Shown: positions 4,817-58,331, counted from the stretch's first letter. The stretch is 64,000 nt of DNA from Candidatus Versatilivorator sp. (GCA_965198125.1 CBDAOQ010000003.1:439890-503889); one strand, 5' to 3'. The notes: generated from the sequence alone by a model not told the origin. Translations and numbers: made by a program.

Positions 4817-5281
4817 CTCTCTCCCTCCCGCAAACCGGGCAGACCCTGCCAACCTTGGCCTTGATTGAATTCTCGCAGAACCGGTCCCCGTCATTCAGAA
4901 GCAAGCCCTCCCTTTTGTCAATAGAGTTTCTTCGGGCGCAAGGTCGATCTGGTCAGTCGGCGTGGGGTCGAGGCGAGTTCCAACTATCTGCGCAGGAACA
5001 GCATCCTGCAGTCCGCCCAGGTGATCTATGGATCGTGACGCCCCACATATCGTGGACATCGTCAAAAAATCCTGTATATCCTGTCCATCCATGTAAATTA
5101 TCCCTGTAAGTCACCAAGCGTAGGTTCGCCCCCCACCGGCTCGACCGCTGGCTTCGCCCTTGTCTCGCCGACTCCCCCTCAAGGGGGGAGTGATTCTTGA
5201 GGCCTGCAAATGGCTTCTTGCCCGATTCCTCAGCAAGGTGTAAACCCTGTTTCCGGTTTATTGTGTGGATGAAGGCTTCCT

Positions 5282-27160: not shown

Positions 27161-27947
27161 CCTGATTTCCCCCGGCTATTTTGCTTTTTACTGAATTTTT
27201 ACTGAATGGATCCCTGGAATGATAGCAAGTCATCGGCCGAAAAGATAGATCCCGCGCAAGGTTTCCTCTGCGCCGGGCCGGCAGCTCCCGAAAGGAGTTA
27301 TCCACGAAGGGGCACGAAGGACCGCGAAGGGACACGAAGAAAGACTAAAAGAAAACGAGCTTCTTCGCCGACAAGCGGCGGCGGCACGGGGTTTGCACGA
27401 CCCCGGGCGCCAGCTTCTCCGCGCAAGCGGGGGCGGACGACCCGTTTCAGATCGACCCCTGCCGTCCTTTGCGAATCAGGGAAAGAACCAGATCGAATCC
27501 GTACCAGGTGGCCAGGAAAGCCAGGCACTCGAGGCTGAAGCTCTGGAACTTGTAGAAAACCTCGGCCACGATCAGCGCTCCACCGGCCGCGGGAAGCTGC
27601 TCCAATGCGATTCGGGAAAGAGGAAGGGAGTGTAGCAGGGTATACATGGCGGATCTGACTCCTCGTCAGTCAAAGGCCCGGCAGTGGTGCCCCATGGAAG
27701 GGGACCATCCGGCTGCTATCTCTGATGCCCCGGGAAACGCCTTCAAGGCTCCGTAGGTTCCTCCGGTGCAGCAAAGTGAGTTCCTTCACAGGGGGATGCC
27801 GTCCCTGGAGTCTTGCCGGACCGGACCCCAAGGATCAAAATTAGCCTATCATACCATTGCCGCAAAAGCGGCAAGCCCCGCCGCCAACGCGCCGCTGCCC
27901 GTGCCTTTGATGGTCACTTACGGGGCGCCGCGTTTGCCCCCCTCCGG

Positions 27948-47657: not shown

Positions 47658-48236
47658 TCAGGCCTTCCGGACGACCAGGTTATTGGTCACCGAGAACACC
47701 CCCGGGACCGCTGAAGCCTTCAGAAAGGCGAAAATCTTGTCCGACTCACTGTTGACCCTGCCGACCAGGGTCACGTCACCCTTTTTCACAATGATACCAA
47801 TGGCATCGTAATCCCCCAGGCTGTAGGGAAACAGGCGACTGCCTCGATTGTAAAGGGCTCGATAGACCGCCAGTCGAATCTGATCGTCATTGGGAGAGTT
47901 CGGCAACACCTCGATATGGTTGATGACGGTGGAAATTCCCTCGATGCCTTGCACGATTCTTCCCGCCGCATTCTTCAAGCTTGGGCTGGTGACCTGGCCG
48001 ATCAACTGAAGTTCATCGCCATCGAGCTGAAAGGCGAGGTGGTCAAAGACGCTGAAGTAGGGAAGCATTACCAATTCGTGCCGAATTTTGCTCTCCAGCC
48101 GCTTCTGGTCCTGAACCAAAGAATTCTCAGCTACGGTTGCTGCTGCGTCCGCGTTGCCGGCCCAAGACACCAACGGCACGGTCAACAGCACCGCCGCCAA
48201 AAAAGAACACATCGTGACCTTATGTTTCGTTTTCAT
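47658..48236 (-). CDS. Periplasmic BON-domain protein (OsmY-like, two BON domains)
   Basis: Signal peptide MCSFLAAVLLTVPLVSWA. Two BON-like segments (…LQLIGQVTSPSLKNAAGRIVQGIEGISTVINHIEV… and …VTLVGRVNSESDKIFAFLKASAVPGVFSVTNNLVV). Confidence 0.75.
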   Translation of the reverse strand: MKTKHKVTMCSFLAAVLLTVPLVSWAGNADAAATVAENSLVQDQKRLESKIRHELVMLPYFSVFDHLAFQLDGDELQLIGQVTSPSLKNAAGRIVQGIEGISTVINHIEVLPNSPNDDQIRLAVYRALYNRGSRLFPYSLGDYDAIGIIVKKGDVTLVGRVNSESDKIFAFLKASAVPGVFSVTNNLVVRKA

Positions 48237-48383
48237 CGTTTTTCGTCCTCCCGGTTGAACTCGCGCCTGGATTCTGAACGTGGGTTGAATCTCTTGCGGC
48301 CCGTTTGCTTGGGCACTCAGGCAGCCTGATGGCCACCCGATGCGACTGACATTCCTTTAGACGCAGGTGGGCCAGCACGCGAT

Positions 48384-48419
48384 GTAAAGAGTTGGTCAAC
48401 CTCATGTAAAGTTTTGTGA
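48384..48419 (+). promoter_or_regulatory. Candidate response-regulator operator: direct-repeat motif GTAAAGAGTTGGTCAACCTCATGTAAAGTTTTGTGA
   Basis: About 28/36 positions match 52517-52553 and about 26/36 match 53453-53489. Lies 148-183 bp upstream of the BON gene start and about 190 bp upstream of the divergent PQQ-propeller gene. Confidence 0.5.
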
Positions 48420-48605
48420 TTGAGGCAGTGGAACCGATGCGGTTTCGGCATGCCACAAGGATCGGGGTCCCTTTGGCAAATTCAACGAAACCGGCAAAGG
48501 AGACAAGTCGTTCTACCGTCAGAAGCCGGAGAATCACTCCACCGGCCGAAGGACTTGTCTTTCAGGCGAAGGAGATTCGCAGTGTCCCGAAAACCATTCG
48601 TTCAG

Positions 48606-50321
48606 ATGATGGTGTCCGTTTCCTTAATCCTATGGTCGTCATCCATGCACGCCGATTGGACTCGCTTTCGAGGGCCGAACGGCGCCGGGGTCAGCACCGA
48701 CCAGGATCCGCTCCCCACCAACTGGAGCGGGACCCGTAACCTTCAATGGAAGGTCCCGTTACCCGGACCGGGGTCCTCCAGCCCCATCGTGGTCGGCGAT
48801 AAAATCTTTGTTACCTACTGGTCGGGATATGGAATGGATCGCAGAAATCCGGGTGACCTGAAGCAACTGCGCCGCCACCTGATCTGTATCGATCGCCATA
48901 CCGGCAAGACCCTCTGGTCCAAAGCCATCGAGGCCCGGCTGCCGGAAATCGATTACAGCGGGAGGATCACTCAACACGGTTATGCCACGCACACCCCGGT
49001 TTCCGATGGTGAGCACGTCTATGCCTACTTCGGCAAAAGCGGGGCCTTTTGCTTCGACATGGAAGGAAAGCAGGTCTGGCAAAGACACATCGGTATGGAA
49101 TCGGATCCTGAAGGCCGCGGGTCTGCTTCCAGCCCCATCCTCTATAAGCATCTGCTCATTGTCACGGCTACCTCCGAAAGTGAAGCCCTGGTAGGCCTGA
49201 ACAGGAAGACGGGGGAAGTAGTCTGGAGACAGGAGGCTGCAGGCTTGAACGCCACCTGGGGAACTCCCGCACTGGCTCAGGCCGGCCCAAACCGGACCGA
49301 CCTGGTGATCACCGTCCCCAGAGAGATCTGGGGCCTCAATCCGAACACCGGCAGGCTGCGATGGTATTCCTCGGGTCTGCAGTCTGGAAACTCCAATTCC
49401 AGCGCGATTTCCCACGACGGCATCGTCTATGCCGTCGAGTCCGGCGCGGGGGGCGGCGGCGGAGTAGCCGTCCGGGCGGGGGGGAAAGGTGACGTCACCC
49501 AGTCTCGTGTCCTCTGGTCTGCCCGCCATGCCAACCGCACCGCGACACCCATCCTCTACCAGGGGCGCCTCTACACCTTCTCGAACCAGATCGTAACCTG
49601 TATCGATGCCGGAACCGGCACGGAGATTTTCAAGGCCCGCCTAAGAACCGGCAACGCCGTCCCTGCAGCTCAGGGCAGCTTTAGAAGAGGCGGCGGCTTT
49701 GGAAGCAACTATGCATCTCCTGTCATTGGCGACGGCAAGATTTACTTCGTGACGCGCTCCGGGCACGTTTTCGTGCTCAAGGCCAGTGAGCGATTTGAAC
49801 TGTTGGCCGTCAATCGCATGGCGGAAGACGGCGAAGATTTCAGCGCCACACCGGCCATCAGCAAGGGTCTCCTTTTCCTGCGTTCCAACCGAAATCTTTA
49901 CTGTCTCGCACTCAGGGAGGAAGACAGCGGCTCAACCACGCAACAGGCTGAAGCCGTCCCTGATCCAATGGTTCAGGAAGATCCTTCACCTGCGGCCACA
50001 CCGCGCGGGCCGGGCCGATTCGGGGGTCGGCGCCGGGGCCGTGGCGGCTTCGATCCTTCGGTATTCTTCCGGCGTCGCGATGCCAACAACGACGGTAAGC
50101 TCAGCGGCGAAGAGATTCCGGAACGAATGCGCGGCAATCTGGGAAGGATGGATACCGACGGGGACGGCGCGATAACGCTGGCCGAGTTCCGGGAGGCGAT
50201 GAATCAGATGTTCAGGAGAAACCGCTCCCGTTCTCCCGGCCGGGAAGGTGGGGGCTTCGGCGGCCGGAATCGACGCCAGGGCCGTCCCGAGCGACCCCAG
50301 CGTCCCGAATTGGAAAGTTGA
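48606..50321 (+). CDS. Secreted PQQ-like beta-propeller repeat protein with C-terminal EF-hand pair
   Basis: Signal peptide MMVSVSLILWSSSMHA. Repeated PQQ/BamB-like blades (…HVYAYFGKSGAFCFDMEGKQVW…; …LYTFSNQIVTCIDAGTGTEIF…). C-terminal DANNDGKLSGEEI and DTDGDGAITLAEF are canonical EF-hand loops. Gly/Arg-rich tail. Confidence 0.7.
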   Translation: MMVSVSLILWSSSMHADWTRFRGPNGAGVSTDQDPLPTNWSGTRNLQWKVPLPGPGSSSPIVVGDKIFVTYWSGYGMDRRNPGDLKQLRRHLICIDRHTGKTLWSKAIEARLPEIDYSGRITQHGYATHTPVSDGEHVYAYFGKSGAFCFDMEGKQVWQRHIGMESDPEGRGSASSPILYKHLLIVTATSESEALVGLNRKTGEVVWRQEAAGLNATWGTPALAQAGPNRTDLVITVPREIWGLNPNTGRLRWYSSGLQSGNSNSSAISHDGIVYAVESGAGGGGGVAVRAGGKGDVTQSRVLWSARHANRTATPILYQGRLYTFSNQIVTCIDAGTGTEIFKARLRTGNAVPAAQGSFRRGGGFGSNYASPVIGDGKIYFVTRSGHVFVLKASERFELLAVNRMAEDGEDFSATPAISKGLLFLRSNRNLYCLALREEDSGSTTQQAEAVPDPMVQEDPSPAATPRGPGRFGGRRRGRGGFDPSVFFRRRDANNDGKLSGEEIPERMRGNLGRMDTDGDGAITLAEFREAMNQMFRRNRSRSPGREGGGFGGRNRRQGRPERPQRPELES

Positions 50322-50394
50322 TGGCGATGCAGGCTCGGCCAGGGCCGCCAGGCCGGCGGCACTGCTTGCCTGAAACAAACGAAAAAAGACAAAA

Positions 50395-51260
50395 GAAAAA
50401 AGAGTTATCCACGAAGGGCCACGAAGGCGTTGAGGTTAACCGCGACGGGATGCCAAGGTCGCGAAGGGATTATCGATTTCCGATTGTTTCCCTCTGGTTT
50501 GATCCGCACGGCACGGCGGGGGCCGAACTTGTCTGAAACAACGCCTTGTGCCGCGTGGCGGGAAACCCGTTCAATGTCAAGCATAGTTAGACGGCTAATT
50601 TACATGGATGCACAGGATGCACAGGATTATTTGGCGAGAGTTTCCACCGTCATGAGTTCAACCATCGCCTCTGTTCCAACACGGATTTCCCAAAACCCGC
50701 TCCCGGGCTCTTGGATCACTTCCAACACCCACCCGATCATCGAGCGGGTCTGCTTCCTGTGGCGCAGCCTCTCCTGCTGTTTATCCTGTCTATCCTGTGT
50801 ATCCATGTTCAATAAGTAGAAACCCGTTTAGCACGACTTGGCCCTTGTTCCCGACAGGCCATGAAGATTCGTTGTTTCACTCTCGTATGATCCGCCCCGT
50901 CGTGGGGGCGGGGGCCGGACTTGTTTGAAACAACGCCCTGAGCTTGGTGGCTGGAGACCGGTTCAAAGTCAAGCATGAGTAGTTTTTTGATTCACATCGA
51001 TGCACAGGATGCACAGGATTTTTTCTGAAGACTGCTGGCTTGCAGTCCTGGACATCCGCAAATCCGCACTCGATCATTGAGCAAGTCTGCTTCCCGTGCG
51101 GCGGCCTCTCGTGCTGTTTATCCTGTGCATCCTGTGCATCCATGTTCAATAATCCGGAATTCTGAATTAACCTGACAGAGTCTTTGTTCCCGATAGGCCA
51201 GGACGATTTGTTGTTTCACCCTCGTTTGATCGGCCCCGGGGTAGGGTAGCTGGGCCAGGC
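50395..51260. repeat. Tandem composite repeat: C-unit / MITE-B (50599-50814) / C-unit / MITE-B (50988-51152) / partial C-unit
   Basis: Unit period about 390 bp. C-units contain a GC-rich hairpin (CCGCCCCGTCGTGGGGGCGG) followed by the palindrome TTGTTTGAAACAA. The region begins with short CACGAAGGG decamers. Confidence 0.65.
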
Positions 51261-51321
51261 CCGCGGGCAAACGGGAGTTTCCCAAGTGGATAGTAATTGG
51301 ATCCACACGTGAAGCATCTTT

Positions 51322-51447
51322 AGTCGGTCTCGGCGCCATCGTCCAATAAGTGCAACCAAGTCATCAGGCACTTGCCTGTTCCCGAAACCCTCCGCTGACC
51401 ACTCTCCACTCTTCACTCTCCACTCTCCACTCTCCACTCTTCACTAT
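51322..51447. repeat. Partial reverse copy of MITE family E, ending at the M48 gene stop codon
   Basis: The reverse complement of 22911-23000 is recognisable, including CACTCTCCACTCTTCACTCTCCAC repeats. The element terminus coincides with the TGA of the 51447-52439 ORF. Confidence 0.55.
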
Positions 51448-52439
51448 CAGGAGCGACGCTTCAAACGGGGACGGTCGTCATCTTCCGGTTGTGGTTCGTC
51501 CTCTACCCCGACCTCCCCGGGAGTACGGCGCTTCAAGCGGGGCCGCTTTCCTGTCTCTTCCGGTGAGGGTCTCCTGGCATTATCCATGGCGATGAGCCTG
51601 GCCTTGATTCTGTCAAACTCCGTGGTGCTGATGACGTACTGGTCGCGTTCCGGGAGAATCTTTTCAATGTGTGCCTGAGTCTTCTTGATGCGCTTGTGAG
51701 TGGGAGGATGGGTCGAGAAGGCTGTGGCCAACTTGCCGCGCTTTTTCTTCTTCTGGGACTGCAGTTTCTCAAAAAAGGAAACAAATCCATTGGGATCGTA
51801 GCCGGTCTTGTACATGTACTGGAGACCCAGGTAGTCCGCCTCGGTTTCCGCCTTGCGGCTGAACCGCAGGAATTGCATGGGAATCAGGAAGCTGGATGCA
51901 TTGTAGATCGCCGATGCAATCCCTCCGCTGAGAAAGATCAGGGGGACCATGGCATAGTTGGCGATGGTGGCTTTGGTTTGCTGCTCGGTGGCGTGGCGGG
52001 CGGTCACGTGCGCAATCTCATGGGCCATCACGCCCGCAATTTCAGATTCATCGTCGGCTGCGGTGATCAGTCCGCTGTTGACGTAAAGGAAGCCTCCGGG
52101 CAGAGCCATGGCATTGATCTTTTCCGAATCGATCACCTTAATGGTAAAGGGCACCTTGGCGTCGGAATTGCGCACCAGGTTCTGGGCGACCCGGTTCACA
52201 TACTCCGTGACTTCAGGATCTTCAATCAGCTTGACTTGACGTTCGATCTGCTGGGAAAGCTGCCGGCCAAGGGCAATCTCCTTCTGGATCGAAATGAGAT
52301 TCCAGTTCCCCTTGTTGACGTTTCGATTCCCGATCTCGTCCAGGTCGGAGTTCTTGGGGGCCTTGGCAAACGACGGCACACCGCTGACCAGGCTCAATGT
52401 CAAACAGGGTGCGAGCACGTATCTTTGGAGAAACTGCAT
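51447..52439 (-). CDS. M48-family zinc metallopeptidase (HtpX/BepA/LoiP-like), secreted
   Basis: HEIAHV (HExxH) motif plus downstream AETEADYLG glutamate. Signal peptide MQFLQRYVLAPCLTLSLVSG. The track ORF extends to 52463. Confidence 0.8.
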   Translation of the reverse strand: MQFLQRYVLAPCLTLSLVSGVPSFAKAPKNSDLDEIGNRNVNKGNWNLISIQKEIALGRQLSQQIERQVKLIEDPEVTEYVNRVAQNLVRNSDAKVPFTIKVIDSEKINAMALPGGFLYVNSGLITAADDESEIAGVMAHEIAHVTARHATEQQTKATIANYAMVPLIFLSGGIASAIYNASSFLIPMQFLRFSRKAETEADYLGLQYMYKTGYDPNGFVSFFEKLQSQKKKKRGKLATAFSTHPPTHKRIKKTQAHIEKILPERDQYVISTTEFDRIKARLIAMDNARRPSPEETGKRPRLKRRTPGEVGVEDEPQPEDDDRPRLKRRS

Positions 52440-52516
52440 GACGCCCTCCTTCTCAGGTTTCACGTCCCGTAGATTTTTTCCTCACAGGAACAGATGCCGA
52501 CCGAGGCGCAAACGAA

Positions 52517-52553
52517 GTAAGGAATTGGTCAACGTTTCGTAAAGATTCGTCAA
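52517..52553 (+). promoter_or_regulatory. Candidate response-regulator operator: GTAAGGAATTGGTCAACGTTTCGTAAAGATTCGTCAA
   Basis: 78-114 bp upstream of the M48 peptidase start on the antisense strand, the same relative orientation as the other two copies. Confidence 0.5.
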
Positions 52554-52806
52554 GCCTGGAGGCACACTACCAGAGATAGCCCCATAGACAAGATCACCGA
52601 GATCGTCATTGCTCTATTGGTTCCCATCTCTTCCTCCCTTTGTCAATTCCACTCAAAGTTGTTGCCGAATGTTCGCGGTCGACCTTCTCCAGCCCGAGTT
52701 CGGCCTGTCTGTTGCCTCAGCGGCAATAAGGGTGGGTCCGGCCTGAGAACCGAACCCACCCCATCGCTACCAGTACGACCGACCCCACTGTGGAGATGTC
52801 CAGGGA

Positions 52807-53352
52807 TTAGTCTCCGCCGGGACCGTCGCCGGAACGCTCGCGTCTCCGTTGCCCGCGCTTTTCCCAGCCGGCTTTCCGCTTTTCTTGAAACGAACTCCAT
52901 TTCTGCTGCTGCTCGGGTGTCAGGACATTTCTAAGATCCAACCGCGACTTGGCACCGATGGCCACCAACTGGCCCTGGAGCTTCCCATGCTCGCCGGCCA
53001 GAGCGTCGATCTTGGCCGTCTCCCCTGCCTTGACGGCTGTACCCAGAGCCTTGCGGTTGGCCCGCAGTTGCTTGCGGATAGGCTGGGATTGATCCCGGGC
53101 AGCCTTGCGGATCTTTTTGATGTCGGCCTGTTGGGATTCGGTCAATTCCAGGAACTCGGCCACCATGGCACCCCGCATCCCTATCATACCCTTGCCTCCG
53201 GGACCTCGCCCCCGGCCGCCTCCACCTCTGAAGCCTGCGAACTGGCCGAAAGCGGATTCCACCAGGAGAATCGATGCCAGAGCAAAGACCGAGACCGCCA
53301 CGCCTTTCACCAGAATCCTTCCCGTTTGCGTTTTGTTTGAAACTTGGAACAT
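52807..53352 (-). CDS. Spy/CpxP-family periplasmic LTxxQ chaperone
   Basis: 181 aa from MFQVSNK, with a GGAGG Shine-Dalgarno 7 nt upstream. Signal peptide. LTESQQADIKKIRK and LTPEQQQKW are LTxxQ motifs. The track ORF is artificially extended upstream in-frame. Confidence 0.8.
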   Translation of the reverse strand: MFQVSNKTQTGRILVKGVAVSVFALASILLVESAFGQFAGFRGGGGRGRGPGGKGMIGMRGAMVAEFLELTESQQADIKKIRKAARDQSQPIRKQLRANRKALGTAVKAGETAKIDALAGEHGKLQGQLVAIGAKSRLDLRNVLTPEQQQKWSSFQEKRKAGWEKRGQRRRERSGDGPGGD

Positions 53353-53452
53353 TTGAGTTTCCTCCTTTTCTGGAATTTTCAAGAGCCTCCACAACAACCT
53401 TGCTGCTCGCCTGACTCTTACCCCTATATACGTCGCTCCCGGTGAAGGGGGT

Positions 53453-53489
53453 GTAAAGAGTGCGTCAGAGTTCTGTAGAGTTTTGTCAA
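53453..53489 (+). promoter_or_regulatory. Candidate response-regulator operator: GTAAAGAGTGCGTCAGAGTTCTGTAGAGTTTTGTCAA
   Basis: 101-137 bp upstream of the Spy/CpxP-like gene start. It lies between that gene and the ISAs1-type transposase gene. Confidence 0.5.
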
Positions 53490-53601
53490 TGGGTCCGGCC
53501 CCGTCGGCCAGGGCCATTTCATGCTGAGTTCTAAGTGACGCAGGTACAAGGTTAGAAAAAAGGGCTGGCTTTTTCGAGGAGAGTTCTGTATATGTAGAGG
53601 C

Positions 53602-55368
53602 ATGGCGAAAGAGTGTGGAGAGTTCCGACCGGTGGTGAAAGAAGTAAAGGTACGGTTGGCGTGGCCGAAGGAGCGGCGGCGCTGGGACGCACTGATGGAG
53701 GAGCATCATTATCTGGGGTTCAAGCAATTCGCAGGGCGGGGACTGCGCTACGTAGCGGAGTGGGACGGCCGGTGGGTGGCGCTGGTGGGCTGGCAGGGGG
53801 GAGCCTTCAAGTGCGGTCCGCGGGACCGGTGGCTGGGTTGGCACAAGGGGGTGCAGTTTCGCCGGCTGCACTTAATCGGAAACAACACGCGTTTTCTGAT
53901 TCTGCCGGAGGGGCAGGGAGTCAAGAACCTGGGCTCGCACGTATTGGGCCGCAATCTACGGCGGCTGAGCGAGGACTGGGAGCAGACCTGGGGGCACCGG
54001 TTGGAGCTGGCCGAGACCTTCGTGGATCCGAAGCGGTACCAAGGGACGGTGTACCTGGCCTCGAACTGGAAGCGGGTGGGACGGACGCGGGGGTATGGGC
54101 GCTCGAACGGGAGCTGGACCGAGCGGCACGGGGAGCGGAAGGAAATGCTGCTGTATCCGTTGCGGGAGGATGCGCGAGAGCGGTTGCGGGATCCGGAGGA
54201 CCGGCGGGAGTGGAGCTGCCGGGGGGTGGCAGTGGACTACGGGAAGGGGGAGTTGCAGTCGTTGCGGAGGCAGTTGGAAGGGGTAGAGGACTTCCGGCGG
54301 GCGCAGGGGCGCAAGCACCGGATGGCGGCGGTGGTGTCGATCTGCGTGCTGGCGCGGCTGGCCGGGAAGGTGGGACCGACGGAGACGGCACGGTTTGCGA
54401 AGTCATTGACGCAAGAAGAGTTGCGGGTACTGGGCACTTGGTTCGACCCCAAGGCGAACTGCTGGGTTCCGCCATCGCTGGCGACCATCCACCGGGTCCT
54501 GGCACACACGGGCCCGGATTCTCTGGCGCGGCAGGTGCAGCGCTGGACGGCTCCACGCTGCCGGGAGGGGACGGCCTTTGCCGGGGACGGCAAGCGGATT
54601 TGCGGGGCGAACCGTCACGCGAAGGGGAAGCGGCGCTGGGAGACGGTGACGCTGGTGGAACACGGTTCGGGGCTTCCGGTAGCGAGCCACAGTTTCGGCG
54701 AGGAGGGCGGGGAGGTTGCCGCGGTGCGGGCGCTGCTGGAGGAGGTCGACCTGCGCGGGCGCACGGTCACCCTCGACGCCCTGCACACCTGCCGCGACAC
54801 CGAGCGGGCCCTGGTCGAGCAGCATGGAGCCCACTACCTGCTGACGGTGAAGAACAACTGCCCGGAGACCTGCCGGATGCTGGAGACGGTGGACTGGGAG
54901 AGTCGCTCACGGCCTCAGGCGACCCAAGGCCCGGAGAAGGGGCACGGACGAATCGAGACGCGCAGGATCGACACCTTCTGTCCGCCGCCGGGCCTGTTGC
55001 CCTTCTCCCATGCGAAACAAGTCTTCCGAGTGACCCGGAAACGCTACCTCATCAAGGAGGGCGTCGAGACCGTCAGCTTCGCCTACGGCATCACCTCGGC
55101 AGGCCCGCAGCAGGCCGACGCCGCCCAGTTGCTGGAGTGGAACCGCGGCCACTGGAGCATCGAGAACCGCAACCACTACCGCCGCGACACGGTTTACGGA
55201 GAAGACCAGAGCCGGATTCATACCCATCATGGGCCGGCCAACAACGCCACCATCTCCAACGCCGCGCTGGCGATCGTCCTCCACGCCGGATTCGCCAACG
55301 TGCCGGAATCGATCGACCACTATCAGCAGCACCGGGAGGCCGCGCTGGCGACGATCCTCGCCGACTGA
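53602..55368 (+). CDS. ISAs1-family transposase with N-terminal DUF4338-like domain
   Basis: The C-terminal …WNRGHWSIENRNHYRRDTVYGEDQSRIHTHHGPANNATISNAALAIV is the characteristic ISAs1 (DDE_Tnp_1 + associated domain) ending. The N-terminal …WDALMEEHHYLGF…WVALVGWQGGAFKCGPRDRWLGW… resembles DUF4338. IS ends were not resolved. Confidence 0.7.
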   Translation: MAKECGEFRPVVKEVKVRLAWPKERRRWDALMEEHHYLGFKQFAGRGLRYVAEWDGRWVALVGWQGGAFKCGPRDRWLGWHKGVQFRRLHLIGNNTRFLILPEGQGVKNLGSHVLGRNLRRLSEDWEQTWGHRLELAETFVDPKRYQGTVYLASNWKRVGRTRGYGRSNGSWTERHGERKEMLLYPLREDARERLRDPEDRREWSCRGVAVDYGKGELQSLRRQLEGVEDFRRAQGRKHRMAAVVSICVLARLAGKVGPTETARFAKSLTQEELRVLGTWFDPKANCWVPPSLATIHRVLAHTGPDSLARQVQRWTAPRCREGTAFAGDGKRICGANRHAKGKRRWETVTLVEHGSGLPVASHSFGEEGGEVAAVRALLEEVDLRGRTVTLDALHTCRDTERALVEQHGAHYLLTVKNNCPETCRMLETVDWESRSRPQATQGPEKGHGRIETRRIDTFCPPPGLLPFSHAKQVFRVTRKRYLIKEGVETVSFAYGITSAGPQQADAAQLLEWNRGHWSIENRNHYRRDTVYGEDQSRIHTHHGPANNATISNAALAIVLHAGFANVPESIDHYQQHREAALATILAD

Positions 55369-55899
55369 GCCCGGCGAGAGGGACCGAGCCGGGCCGGCAG
55401 GCCCGATGCCCGCGCTCCACTGGGCCTGCAAGGCCCGGACTTGGGTCCAGGCACCTCCAAACCACTCCAATCAGCCTGTCATCCCCCCGAAACTCTACCA
55501 GTCTCACCCATTCTTGGCCCAATACGGTCTCATAAGGGAGTCGACGTTAGAAGAACAGCATGAAAGGACCCTGCCCCGTCGGACGCTTCTTTACGAATCG
55601 TGAGGAGACCCATTCTCCGGAGTGTTGCGAGCCCGGCAACTCACCAGCACGTTCCGGCCATGGCCGGATTTCTTCCCCGGTCTTGACTTCAAAAGGATCC
55701 TCTATTGGAAAGTTGGCTTCTCCATGGGAATCACCGCCATCCGGCAGACGGAAACCCATGTCTGAAACCCTGCCCTTGAGGTGAACGTTGTTATTTAAGT
55801 GATCCTTATTCTTGAGAGTTGAACTCCACCAATCCAAAACAATACCCTTAACTGTTCCGGGACAACCCGGACGGCACCGCTTCACACATCGAGGTTCCT

Positions 55900-56658
55900 A
55901 TGGATCGTTTGCTGGTCGTCGATGACGACACCGAGCTGTGTTCGCTGGTCACCAGGTATCTGGAGCTGGAGGGTTTCCAGGTGGACACCGTCAATAACGG
56001 GCAAGAAGGGATTGAACGCGCCCTTTCGGGCGAGTATTCCTTGGTGGTGCTGGACGTGATGTTGCCGGGGGTCAACGGTTTTGACGCATTGCGACGAATC
56101 CGAACTGAATCGCGAGTTCCCGTGTTAATGCTGTCGGCGAGAGCCGAGGACGTGGAGAGAATCGTGGGACTTGAGATCGGCGCCGACGACTACCTGGCCA
56201 AACCCTTTAATCCGCACGAATTGGTTGCGCGGATACGGGCCATTCTCCGTCGGTCCCAGCCGAACAGAGAGCTTGACGCCGAAAACGTTCATCATCCGCC
56301 CCTGAAGGTGGGAGATATCGAGCTGGACAGGAATGCCTGGAAAGTCATGCGGGCCGGCCAGCCTGTGGAGCTGACCACACTGGAGTTCAACCTCTTGGAA
56401 ATGCTGCTGCGGTCAGCCGGCCAGGTGTTGCCTCGCGAGGTACTCGTTAAAACTTTGCTGGGACGTGAATTCGACCCCTTTGACCGCAGCATCGACATGC
56501 ACGTGAGCAACCTGCGTAAGAAACTGGGCCGCCAGGTGAGTGGCGTCGAACGGATCAGGTCGGTGCGGGGAGTGGGCTATGCTTATCCCAATTCGGACAG
56601 TCCCGTGGAAGAAGGGCTGTCTTCCGTTTCCCGGACTCAAGAGAAGCCTGCCCGATGA
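55900..56658 (+). CDS. OmpR-family response regulator, CpxR-like
   Basis: MDRLLVVDDDTELCSLV receiver N-terminus. LGADDYLAKPFNPHELVARIRAILRRS is nearly identical to the E. coli CpxR segment LGADDYLPKPFNDRELVARIRAILRRS. Winged-helix C-terminus ending RSVRGVGYAY, plus a ~25 aa tail. Confidence 0.85.
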   Translation: MDRLLVVDDDTELCSLVTRYLELEGFQVDTVNNGQEGIERALSGEYSLVVLDVMLPGVNGFDALRRIRTESRVPVLMLSARAEDVERIVGLEIGADDYLAKPFNPHELVARIRAILRRSQPNRELDAENVHHPPLKVGDIELDRNAWKVMRAGQPVELTTLEFNLLEMLLRSAGQVLPREVLVKTLLGREFDPFDRSIDMHVSNLRKKLGRQVSGVERIRSVRGVGYAYPNSDSPVEEGLSSVSRTQEKPAR

Positions 56659-56876
56659 GGAGGTCGGGAATCGGTTGTGGGCACTGATTCAGGAGCGAGG
56701 GCAGTCCACCCTGCCATGGTCTGTCAAGAACCTCAACTGTCCCTTTGCTTCCATTGAGAACACTAAAGGAAACCCGACCCTTTATCTTCCGGACGCCCGG
56801 AACGGATTGAAACCAGTGGGTTACACTACTTGGGTGACGCCAGCAGCACCTGCAGTCCTGACCGATAGCTGAAACC

Positions 56877-58331
56877 ATGCACAGTCTTGTATTGAAAATT
56901 TTCATCTGGTTCTGGGCAGCGATGGCTCTGGTCGGCCTGGCCCTTTATTTTACGACCCAGGCGACCATGTCTGAGCGGGCCGACCGCCGCATGCGCCAGT
57001 GGATTGAGATGGGCATGTCCCTGACTGCACAAAACCTGGCCTACCTTCACGAGAAAGAGGGGCCCACGGCCCTGGCCCGATCCGTCAATCGACTCAATCG
57101 GCGACGTCCACTCAAATTATCCTTCCTCAATGAGCAGGGCGATATTCTGGCCGGCCCCGAGCTTCCGCCCGAGGCGAAGACCCTGGCGATGCGTGCGATC
57201 CGGAGTGGCGAGCGCCAGATGGAATCCTCCGATGAAGGTCGGCGTTTGGTGGCGCAGGCGGTGATCTCAACCCAGGGACGACCGTACGTCCTGGTGGGTG
57301 AAGCCATGAGCGCTTCGCCAAGATTTCCTCGCGGACGGCGCCCAACGCCGCCTTTCCTGTTCAGGACCCTGGGCATTCGGGATGCCGATCCCTGGACCCA
57401 GGTGTTTGGCCTGCTGGCAATGTTCCTCACGGCCGGGATCGTCTGCTATGGCCTGGCACGTTATCTCACCGCCCCGCTGGTGAAGCTTCGCGCCGCGACG
57501 CAGAAGTTGACGGAAGGAGACTTGACGGCTCGGGTCGGACAACCCAGAGGAGGCCGCCGCGACGAAATCACTGACCTCGGCCACGATTTCGACCAAATGG
57601 CCGAACGCATCCAAAGCATGATCGCCGCTCAGCGCCGACTGCTGAGTGACATTTCCCATGAACTGCGCACCCCGCTGTCCCGCCTCAATGTGGCTCTGGC
57701 ACTGATTCGCCGACGGGCAGGCGGCGGAAGCAGCGACGAACTGGACCGCATCGAGCTGGAATCGGAGCGCATCAACAAACTGATCAGCCATTTGCTGACG
57801 TTCACGCGCATGGAAAGTGGTACTGTGGAGATTACCCGAGAGGAGGTCGATCTGGCCCGAATGCTCTCGGAGGTGGCTGCCGATGCCCGTTTCGAGTCCG
57901 GCGACTCGAATAGGACGGTCCACATCATCTCGAGCGAACCCTGCGTCACCGTCGGAAACCCGGAACTGCTGCGAAGCGCCATCGAGAATGTCGTCCGCAA
58001 CGCCGTTTACTACACGGCGGATGACACAAGAGTCGAAATCGAGCTGAAGCTGGCAGGGAAAAACCGGGACTGCGCCATTATCAGAGTTCGTGACCATGGG
58101 GAAGGGGTCCGTGAATCGGAGCTCACCGATATCTTTCGACCTTTCTACAGGGTGGCTGCGGCCCGAGAACGACAGAGCGGTGGAACCGGACTGGGACTAC
58201 CCATTACACAGCGGGCGGTGCAGCTGCACAACGGTTCGGTAGCTGCTTCCAACGCCCCCGGAGGAGGGCTGTGCATGGAGATACGACTGCCTGTCCACCC
58301 GGGAAGCACAGACCCAACCGAGTCACTGTAA
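56877..58331 (+). CDS. Sensor histidine kinase, CpxA/BaeS-like (2 TM + periplasmic loop + HAMP + HisKA + HATPase_c)
   Basis: TM1 LKIFIWFWAAMALVGLALYF. TM2 then HAMP (LTAPLVKLRAATQKLTEGDL). H-box LSDISHELRTPL. G-boxes (RDHGEGV…; GGTGLGLPI). Confidence 0.85.
   Translation: MHSLVLKIFIWFWAAMALVGLALYFTTQATMSERADRRMRQWIEMGMSLTAQNLAYLHEKEGPTALARSVNRLNRRRPLKLSFLNEQGDILAGPELPPEAKTLAMRAIRSGERQMESSDEGRRLVAQAVISTQGRPYVLVGEAMSASPRFPRGRRPTPPFLFRTLGIRDADPWTQVFGLLAMFLTAGIVCYGLARYLTAPLVKLRAATQKLTEGDLTARVGQPRGGRRDEITDLGHDFDQMAERIQSMIAAQRRLLSDISHELRTPLSRLNVALALIRRRAGGGSSDELDRIELESERINKLISHLLTFTRMESGTVEITREEVDLARMLSEVAADARFESGDSNRTVHIISSEPCVTVGNPELLRSAIENVVRNAVYYTADDTRVEIELKLAGKNRDCAIIRVRDHGEGVRESELTDIFRPFYRVAAARERQSGGTGLGLPITQRAVQLHNGSVAASNAPGGGLCMEIRLPVHPGSTDPTESL

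Follow-up and report, generated by a model that had tools for sequence, protein, structure and literature searches.

In Escherichia coli the LTXXQ-protein gene cpxP lies divergently to the regulator-kinase operon cpxRA, and both cpxP and spy are activated by the Cpx system, whose regulator CpxR has GTAAA-N5-GTAAA as its box; bepA is a member of the sigma-E regulon, osmY of the RpoS regulon. Read toward cpxR, the cpxP-cpxR spacer of strain K-12 is GCAAAcatgcGTCAGggggtGTAAAacaacGTAAAg, i.e. GCAAA-N5-GTCAG-N5-GTAAA-N5-GTAAA, with a similar pattern in the spacers of Vibrionaceae, and in our own reading of the E. coli spacer its two upstream half-sites would also be functional. In the pho boxes of PhoB and the tandem sites of OmpR, one-turn direct repeats abut or replace the -35 element and accommodate several tandem dimers (class II). 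Here we describe a locus of the soil acidobacterium Candidatus Versatilivorator sp. (Terriglobia, Candidatus Versatilivoraceae), contained in a stretch of 64 kb given as one strand (GCA_965198125.1 CBDAOQ010000003.1:439890-503889; hereafter the window), in which a CpxR-like regulator and a CpxA-like kinase are encoded beside three envelope genes that carry the same 36-bp motif, referred to as the operator. We estimate at about 0.8 the probability that this is a Cpx-type envelope-stress two-component module with a common operator at the three envelope genes.

In Pseudomonas, CpxR sites with an N6 spacing at cpxP (GTAAAGCTTGGGTAAA), GTCAA half-sites obtained by high-throughput systematic evolution of ligands by exponential enrichment (HT-SELEX) and tandem sites 11 bp apart have been reported (PMC12802237), and the targets include efflux membrane-fusion and TonB-dependent receptor genes (PMC12802237; PMC5063474). 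Our literature search found no paper describing a Cpx system in Acidobacteria and none on the host genus.

The common operator at three envelope genes

A degenerate 36-nt pattern gave exactly three matches in the window, all on the + strand and all inside 5.1 kb, and none in any of 100 dinucleotide-preserving shuffles. Each match was found at the promoter of a minus-strand gene: operator 1 (48384-48419, -; + strand sequence GTAAAGAGTTGGTCAACCTCATGTAAAGTTTTGTGA) before the gene of a BON domain protein, operator 2 (52517-52552, -; GTAAGGAATTGGTCAACGTTTCGTAAAGATTCGTCA) before that of an M48 peptidase and operator 3 (53453-53488, -; GTAAAGAGTGCGTCAGAGTTCTGTAGAGTTTTGTCA), ancestrally common with the regulator operon, before that of a Spy/CpxP-family LTXXQ protein. 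A sequence-only reading of this DNA had pointed to the same motif in the same orientation upstream of these three genes and to a common operator before a cluster of envelope genes, and both points held. A position weight matrix built from independent metagenome sites found the three full operators again, together with one weak single CpxR-type box at 27187. Scoring 14.1 bits, this box (GTAAAAATTCAGTAAA; 27187-27202, -) precedes by 27 nt the ATG of a minus-strand open reading frame of 579 aa, is oriented opposite to the three operators and may be a chance match.

In each operator, GTAAAG is followed one helical turn later (11 and 10 bp) by GTCA(A/G), giving a unit of four phased direct half-sites, GTAAA-N6-GTCA(A/G)-N6-GTA(A/G)A-N5-GT(C/G)A, whose columns were invariant or nearly so over 33 orthologous sites, while the spacers drifted. 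Because GTCA(A) half-sites stand 11 and 10 bp after each GTAAAG, the motif consists of two tandem one-turn CpxR-type boxes and the earlier description as a two-turn-spaced variant of the CpxR box had to be abandoned; N5 and N6 spacings as well as GTCAA are documented for CpxR, and the spacings and half-sites of the window boxes fall within its published specificity (PMC12802237). The N6 spacing, GTCAA, the tandem sites, and efflux and TonB targets like those seen below among metagenome neighbours are shared with the Pseudomonas aeruginosa CpxR regulon, in which, however, the listed targets are dispersed round the genome and a four-half-site operator is not described as the norm, whereas the window-type 36-bp layout is nearly invariant. 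With the E. coli cpxP-cpxR spacer the window has in common direct GTAAA-type repeats running toward the regulator gene and four phased half-sites, including GTCAG, but the phasing is 11/11/10 bp as against 10/10/10 in E. coli, and alternate half-sites are GTCA instead of GTAAA. Tandem one-turn repeats are a likeness to the PhoB and OmpR sites as well, from which the operators differ in half-site sequence and in that their repeats, at all three local promoters, read away from the regulated gene. No Rfam family matched anywhere in the window at gathering thresholds, so that no known RNA element accounts for the motif or the spacers.

Read toward the regulated gene, the operator becomes TGAC-N4-CTTTAC-N6-TTGAC-N5-CTTTAC (in operator 1, TCAC-N4-CTTTAC-N6-TTGAC-N5-CTTTAC, likewise with four phased half-sites); at each of the three promoters in the window its end is followed, exactly 22 nt on, by a -10-like hexamer. 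The putative -10 elements, all on the - strand, are TCTAAA for the BON gene (48356-48361; TCTATA or TCTAAA in relatives), TCTGTT for the M48 gene (52489-52494; TCTGAT in most relatives) and TATATA for the LTXXQ gene (53425-53430; invariant in 12 aligned loci, the window and 11 relatives). Over 57 de-replicated sites, -10-likeness peaked at an offset of 22, where it reached 2.20 over a background of about 1.0, this being the strongest positional signal, and a second offset class at 12 nt, one helical turn closer, corresponded to outer-membrane-protein targets. The -35 position showed neither conservation nor a consensus at the three promoters, and a scan of 52400-56000 for sigma-70 consensus promoters returned 0 sites, suggesting that these are not self-sufficient consensus promoters. 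The 22-nt offset would place the centre of the proximal box near -42.5 and that of the distal box near -64.5, a geometry characteristic of activator-dependent promoters (class II plus class I), and for this reason the three genes are most likely switched on by the regulator.

Two other accounts of these promoters were considered. The motif as a promoter in itself, with TTGACA as the -35 element, was rejected because any -10 lies 21-22 nt away; a reading in terms of an extracytoplasmic function (ECF) sigma factor, prompted by several TC-initial -10-like hexamers, found no support in a conserved -35 element 16-17 nt upstream.

Relatives were gathered through the kinase, which yielded 42 loci, 12 of them from Terriglobia or Candidatus Versatilivoraceae genomes with histidine kinase identities of 64-75%. 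Where contigs sufficed, the 12 relatives had in common the gene order SelA-like, BON, (PQQ propeller), M48, (200-aa secreted protein), LTXXQ, and, divergently, regulator, kinase, enoyl-CoA hydratase and CoA transferase. The motif was kept at every related-genome promoter covered, namely at the orthologous position before BON in 9 relatives, before M48 in 10 and before LTXXQ in 11, and no further copy was found outside these promoters in the twelve related loci (up to 21 kb each). Operator 3 was kept in Blastocatellia and Pyrinomonadaceae loci as well, in which the whole unit of LTXXQ gene, motif and divergent regulator-kinase pair recurs. The Cpx-like divergent unit proposed at the outset was accordingly seen in 11 relatives, in these two more distant groups and, once an insertion sequence (IS) is removed, in the window; the comparison with IS-free orthologous loci that had been called for showed the motif at the same promoters in all relatives, adjoining the two-component system.

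Soil-metagenome contigs were scanned with the exact pattern, which gave at least 120 contigs and, among the matches listed, to which all the metagenome counts given here refer, 123 sites. Positions that the pattern leaves unspecified (AGT after the first GTAAAG and TTT before the last half-site) were also conserved, indicating that these matches are relatives and not chance occurrences. An OmpR-family regulator gene directly adjoined 53 of the 123 sites, with side and orientation as in the window, and [FY]DRS[IL]DMH[VI]S[NKH]LR[KR]KL was present in 36 of 44 full-length regulators, although the motif-adjoining regulators are only 59-66% identical overall to that of the window. The neighbours on the regulated side were predominantly envelope-related: a TonB-receptor-like outer membrane protein with CarboxypepD_reg and a beta-barrel (26 sites), LTXXQ proteins (22), a single-domain receiver (about 13), an HlyD-type membrane-fusion protein (8), a DUF4397 lipoprotein (4) and an unannotated secreted protein (3), which in locus L014 is also encoded next to an ECF sigma gene. 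The opposite, regulator side bore a cNMP-binding protein gene at 14 sites. Since the L014 and L091 lineages also carry two or three operators beside the system, the clustering of operators in cis is a recurring theme.

Regulator, kinase and putative target proteins

Gene families were called with Pfam and NCBIfam profiles, which identified an OmpR/PhoB-family response regulator (55900-56658, +) and a histidine kinase of HAMP-HisKA-HATPase architecture (56877-58331, +). The kinase was unambiguously closest to CpxA: the two best NCBIfam models were both CpxA models, with 327 bits (residues 1-473 aligned to the full profile, positions 1-451 of 451) and 288 bits, followed by RstB with 171, and among solved structures CpxA reached 183 bits and the next chain 89. 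The recognition helix of the regulator is of the CpxR type (FDRSIDMHVSNLRKKL in the window and FDRAIDMHISNLRRKL in E. coli CpxR, nearly equal), and the likeness to E. coli CpxR noted earlier in the alpha4/beta5 region was borne out by alignment. Overall, the regulator was 44-46% identical to Vibrionaceae CpxR and 46.8% identical to that of an enterobacterial relative (L027) which is not confirmable as CpxR. The near-identical helix, the CpxA-like kinase and the divergent arrangement of an LTXXQ gene and a regulator-kinase operon make up the likeness to E. coli cpxP-cpxRA, from which the window differs in that further regulon members are clustered beside the system, in its phylum (Acidobacteriota) and in Cpx profile matches that stay under equivalog cutoffs.

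Two peculiarities of these genes were observed. The regulator of the window has an 18-aa C-terminal extension compared with those of relatives L012 and L007. The regulator-kinase spacer (56659-56876 in the window) differs among co-occurring strains, being 155, 218 or 643 bp long, and that of strain L167 includes about 425 bp of inserted sequence between inverted repeats (GGAGTCTGCGCCGCAGAA...; L166, L167 3760-4402), so that several small insertions are polymorphic at this locus.

The BON domain protein (47658-48236, -) is secreted and OsmY-like, with two matched BON stretches (Pfam BON, 71.1 bits) and a weak match to the OsmY profile. The M48 protein (51447-52439, -; Pfam Peptidase_M48, 118.8 bits) is periplasmic, carries a HEIAH motif and a signal peptide, and starts at the ATG at 52439, preceded by GAAGGAGG. 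With a length of 330-338 aa, it matched the NCBIfam BepA model only over positions 9-286 of the 483 in the profile, with 174.7 bits where the cutoff is 570, so that it is BepA-like in the protease domain alone and lacks the C-terminal TPR domain that, with M48, defines BepA. It is not an HtpX either, since the HtpX models gave 19-32 bits against cutoffs of 245-422, and the proposed connection of this gene to the Cpx regulon through htpX fell with these scores, the BepA model standing at 174.7 bits and the HtpX models at about 32 or less. The LTXXQ protein (52807-53352, -) is periplasmic, with a signal peptide and two LTXXQ motifs (LTESQ and LTPEQ in the Spy alignment); it scored 50.3 bits with Pfam LTXXQ (cutoff 24.3), 45.9 with Metal_resist, and 34.3 and 34.4 with the NCBIfam CpxP and Spy families, both under cutoff (148 for CpxP), and its best-matching solved structure was Spy. 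The three targets match by family E. coli Spy (of Spy/BaeSR), BepA and OsmY, the TPR domain of BepA apart, but in contrast with the E. coli bepA and osmY regulons all three have one common operator type in the window.

Several features adjoin the target genes. A secreted PQQ/BamB-like beta-propeller protein with a C-terminal EF-hand (48582-50321, +) is encoded divergently from the BON gene across a common spacer; its gene is missing in L001 and L009 while the operator stays, and it is thus probably not the primary target of operator 1. In relatives, a gene for a 200-aa secreted protein with no Pfam match sits between the LTXXQ gene and operator 2. A 25-codon remnant of it is left in the window (52550-52627, -) after a 618-bp deletion relative to L012 (6976-7578), with the junction near 52564/52565, and the stop codon that ends this remnant is formed by the last half-site of operator 2. 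An equally short gap between M48 and LTXXQ implies the same deletion in the co-occurring strains L165 and L166. The M48 stop codon is directly followed, on its 3' side, by 6.7 tandem copies of the 7-nt unit CCACTCT (51399-51445).

The insertion sequence and the regulator operon

A 2066-bp IS (53508-55573, +), bounded by imperfect inverted repeats of about 27 bp, interrupts the spacer between the divergent LTXXQ and regulator genes and is flanked by a 9-bp target duplication, CCCCGTCGG (53499-53507 and 55574-55582). Its transposase gene (53602-55368, +) scored 155.7 bits with the NCBIfam ISAs1 profile (cutoff 70) and encodes 588 aa with an N-terminal DruA/DUF4338-like domain (76.7 bits); a look-up of the exact protein returned no record, and the window holds a single copy of the IS. 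Transposase score, inverted repeats, duplication and empty sites in relatives place the element in the ISAs1 family, as the sequence-only reading had it, although its length and the added domain set it apart from typical members, which measure 1.2-1.5 kb.

The IS was absent from all 12 Terriglobia relatives; an empty site was observed in L012 as well as in L165-L167, three strain variants that share one sample. Four contigs of ENA sample ERZ25067264 encode an identical regulator, one of them with the IS and three with an uninterrupted GTCAATGGGTCCGGCCCCGTCGGACGC, and the IS-free contigs were identical at 1008 of 1018 positions over the LTXXQ gene and spacer. As near-identical co-occurring strains lack it, the IS is a recent polymorphism within the population.

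The IS sits 19 bp beyond operator 3 and moves the regulator operon 2 kb away. It had been supposed that the insertion removed a motif belonging to the regulator gene itself, but the IS-free alleles (L012 and L165-L167) have exactly one operator in the divergent spacer, so no operator was lost, and a conserved promoter block is still present right of the IS. This putative core promoter of the regulator operon, TTGAAC-N18-TACCCT (55819-55848, +), proposed on the strength of its conservation, was kept in 10 of the 11 relatives aligned across the spacer (L001 being too diverged to read) and begins 16-17 nt after the operator in eight relatives, that is, at class-I-like positions. Only in the window (55583-55818), L012 (8440-8700), L002 and L001 is an extra segment of about 240-290 bp found between the operator and this block, with a conserved terminator-like hairpin (55653-55668) and a T-run; in L012 the operator lies 335 bp from the ATG, and even without the IS this sub-lineage has about 290 bp between the operator and the block. 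Because the block is intact, the regulator system is probably still expressed, and the likely effect of the IS would be to weaken or abolish operator-dependent feedback on the regulator operon, not its expression.

An inverted half-box next to the IS (GGACGCTTCTTTAC, 55581-55594) was considered as the regulator's own site and rejected, as its counterpart is CTATAC in L012 and CTTTGC in the strains free of the IS, and no -10 element stands at 22 nt. In the Blastocatellia and Pyrinomonadaceae loci, by comparison, a single inverted box, TTGAC-N4-CTTTAC, belongs to the regulator gene itself and stands exactly 22 nt upstream of TACAAT or TAGAAT (L013 9209-9250; L014 7820-7865), and this box together with the common operator would be a clearer autoregulatory arrangement than that of the window lineage.

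Activation, rival explanations and meaning

From the layout we infer the following chain of events, for which the stimulus would presumably be envelope stress. The CpxA-like kinase would phosphorylate the CpxR-like regulator, which would then bind the 36-bp operator, the four direct half-sites suiting a pair of dimers in tandem along a single helical face; from their proximal and distal positions these dimers would activate the LTXXQ, BepA-like M48 and BON genes. In IS-free relatives operator 3 would serve both the LTXXQ gene and the divergent regulator operon, and in the window strain, where the IS parts the two, feedback through the common operator is probably weakened.

Several observations weigh against this account. 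Neither TCTAAA nor TCTGTT, the putative -10 elements at BON and M48, has the A normally found at position 2. All Cpx matches stay under the NCBIfam equivalog cutoffs (CpxA 327 against 800 and 288 against 486, CpxR 216.8 against 341, CpxP 34.3 against 148), and these proteins are distant relatives of CpxA, CpxR and CpxP, not equivalogs. The profiles do not separate the paralogues, the whole regulator scoring 216.8 bits with CpxR and 215.4 with OmpR, and its DNA-binding domain 69.8 with CpxR and 67.2 with RstA. The metagenome scan demanded all four half-sites, and regulon members with a single box were invisible to it. Finally, autoregulation may already have been weak before the IS arrived, given the distance of the promoter block from the operator.

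The inability of the profiles to tell the window regulator from OmpR, RstA or MtrA would leave room for another OmpR-family factor, encoded elsewhere, as the protein that binds the operator, the adjacent two-component system being merely a neighbour, and a CpxR-like regulator gene is indeed missing from the 400 bp around about half of the metagenome sites. Such sites, however, look as dispersed regulon members would, and the 53 sites that do adjoin a regulator adjoin one with the same recognition helix in lineages which have otherwise diverged to 59-66% identity; as this helix differs little from that of E. coli CpxR and the motif fits the known CpxR half-sites and spacings, we regard a factor encoded elsewhere as improbable. 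Slightly less improbable, yet still unlikely, is that the adjacent regulator does bind the operators and represses the three genes. The RefSeq product name of E. coli CpxR calls it a dual regulator, and in the outer-membrane-protein class of metagenome sites the operator ends 12 nt from a near-consensus TACAAT, where it could occlude RNA polymerase; against repression, the window operators end at about -35, where there is no -35 consensus, before weak -10 elements, which is the mark of activator dependence, and the homologous cpxP and spy genes of E. coli are Cpx-activated.

The motif could also be a dispersed repeat or a remnant of a mobile element with no regulatory role, in a genome that does hold an unrelated dispersed family of 26-nt repeats with 8 copies in the window. 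The operator occurs in only three copies, all of them at promoters and in fixed orientation, with invariant half-sites and drifting spacers, and the absence of extra copies in the 64 kb and in the twelve related loci answers the doubt on this score that had been raised with the first description; we hold this explanation to be very improbable indeed. A Cpx-type module acting through a common operator is therefore the reading that we prefer, and that the locus is a phylum-distant example of the known Cpx system, not a new kind of system, is well supported.

The 26-nt repeats (ATCCTGTGCATCCTGTGCATCCATGT; copies at 5069, 8659, 8785, 34543, 50602, 50783, 50994 and 51120) often form inverted pairs, and in the 1.1 kb that separate the M48 gene from the PQQ-propeller gene (50340-51440) about three units of 340-390 bp, arranged in tandem, are organised round them. 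The family looks like a miniature inverted-repeat transposable element (MITE) or a repetitive extragenic palindromic (REP) element.

As a polymorphism between strains the IS insertion is of limited general interest, although, if the proposed scheme is true, strains of the same population with and without the IS would be a natural test of autoregulation through the common operator. Acidobacteriota are a dominant and poorly studied soil phylum in which envelope-stress signalling is essentially uncharacterised, and the locus offers a high-confidence regulator-operator pair, a predicted regulon and a 36-bp probe that retrieves more than 100 soil-metagenome promoters, which makes the system directly testable by DNA affinity purification sequencing (DAP-seq) or metatranscriptomics. 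The operator layout is conserved unusually deep between phyla. Tentatively, and at a little less than even odds, the cpxP-cpxRA divergon, including its four-half-site layout and orientation, may be ancient and common to Gammaproteobacteria and Acidobacteriota (seemingly also to Desulfobacterota and Myxococcota) and not a proteobacterial speciality, in which case soil Acidobacteriota would have a compact and partly cis-linked regulon of chaperone, protease, BON, outer-membrane-protein and efflux genes.

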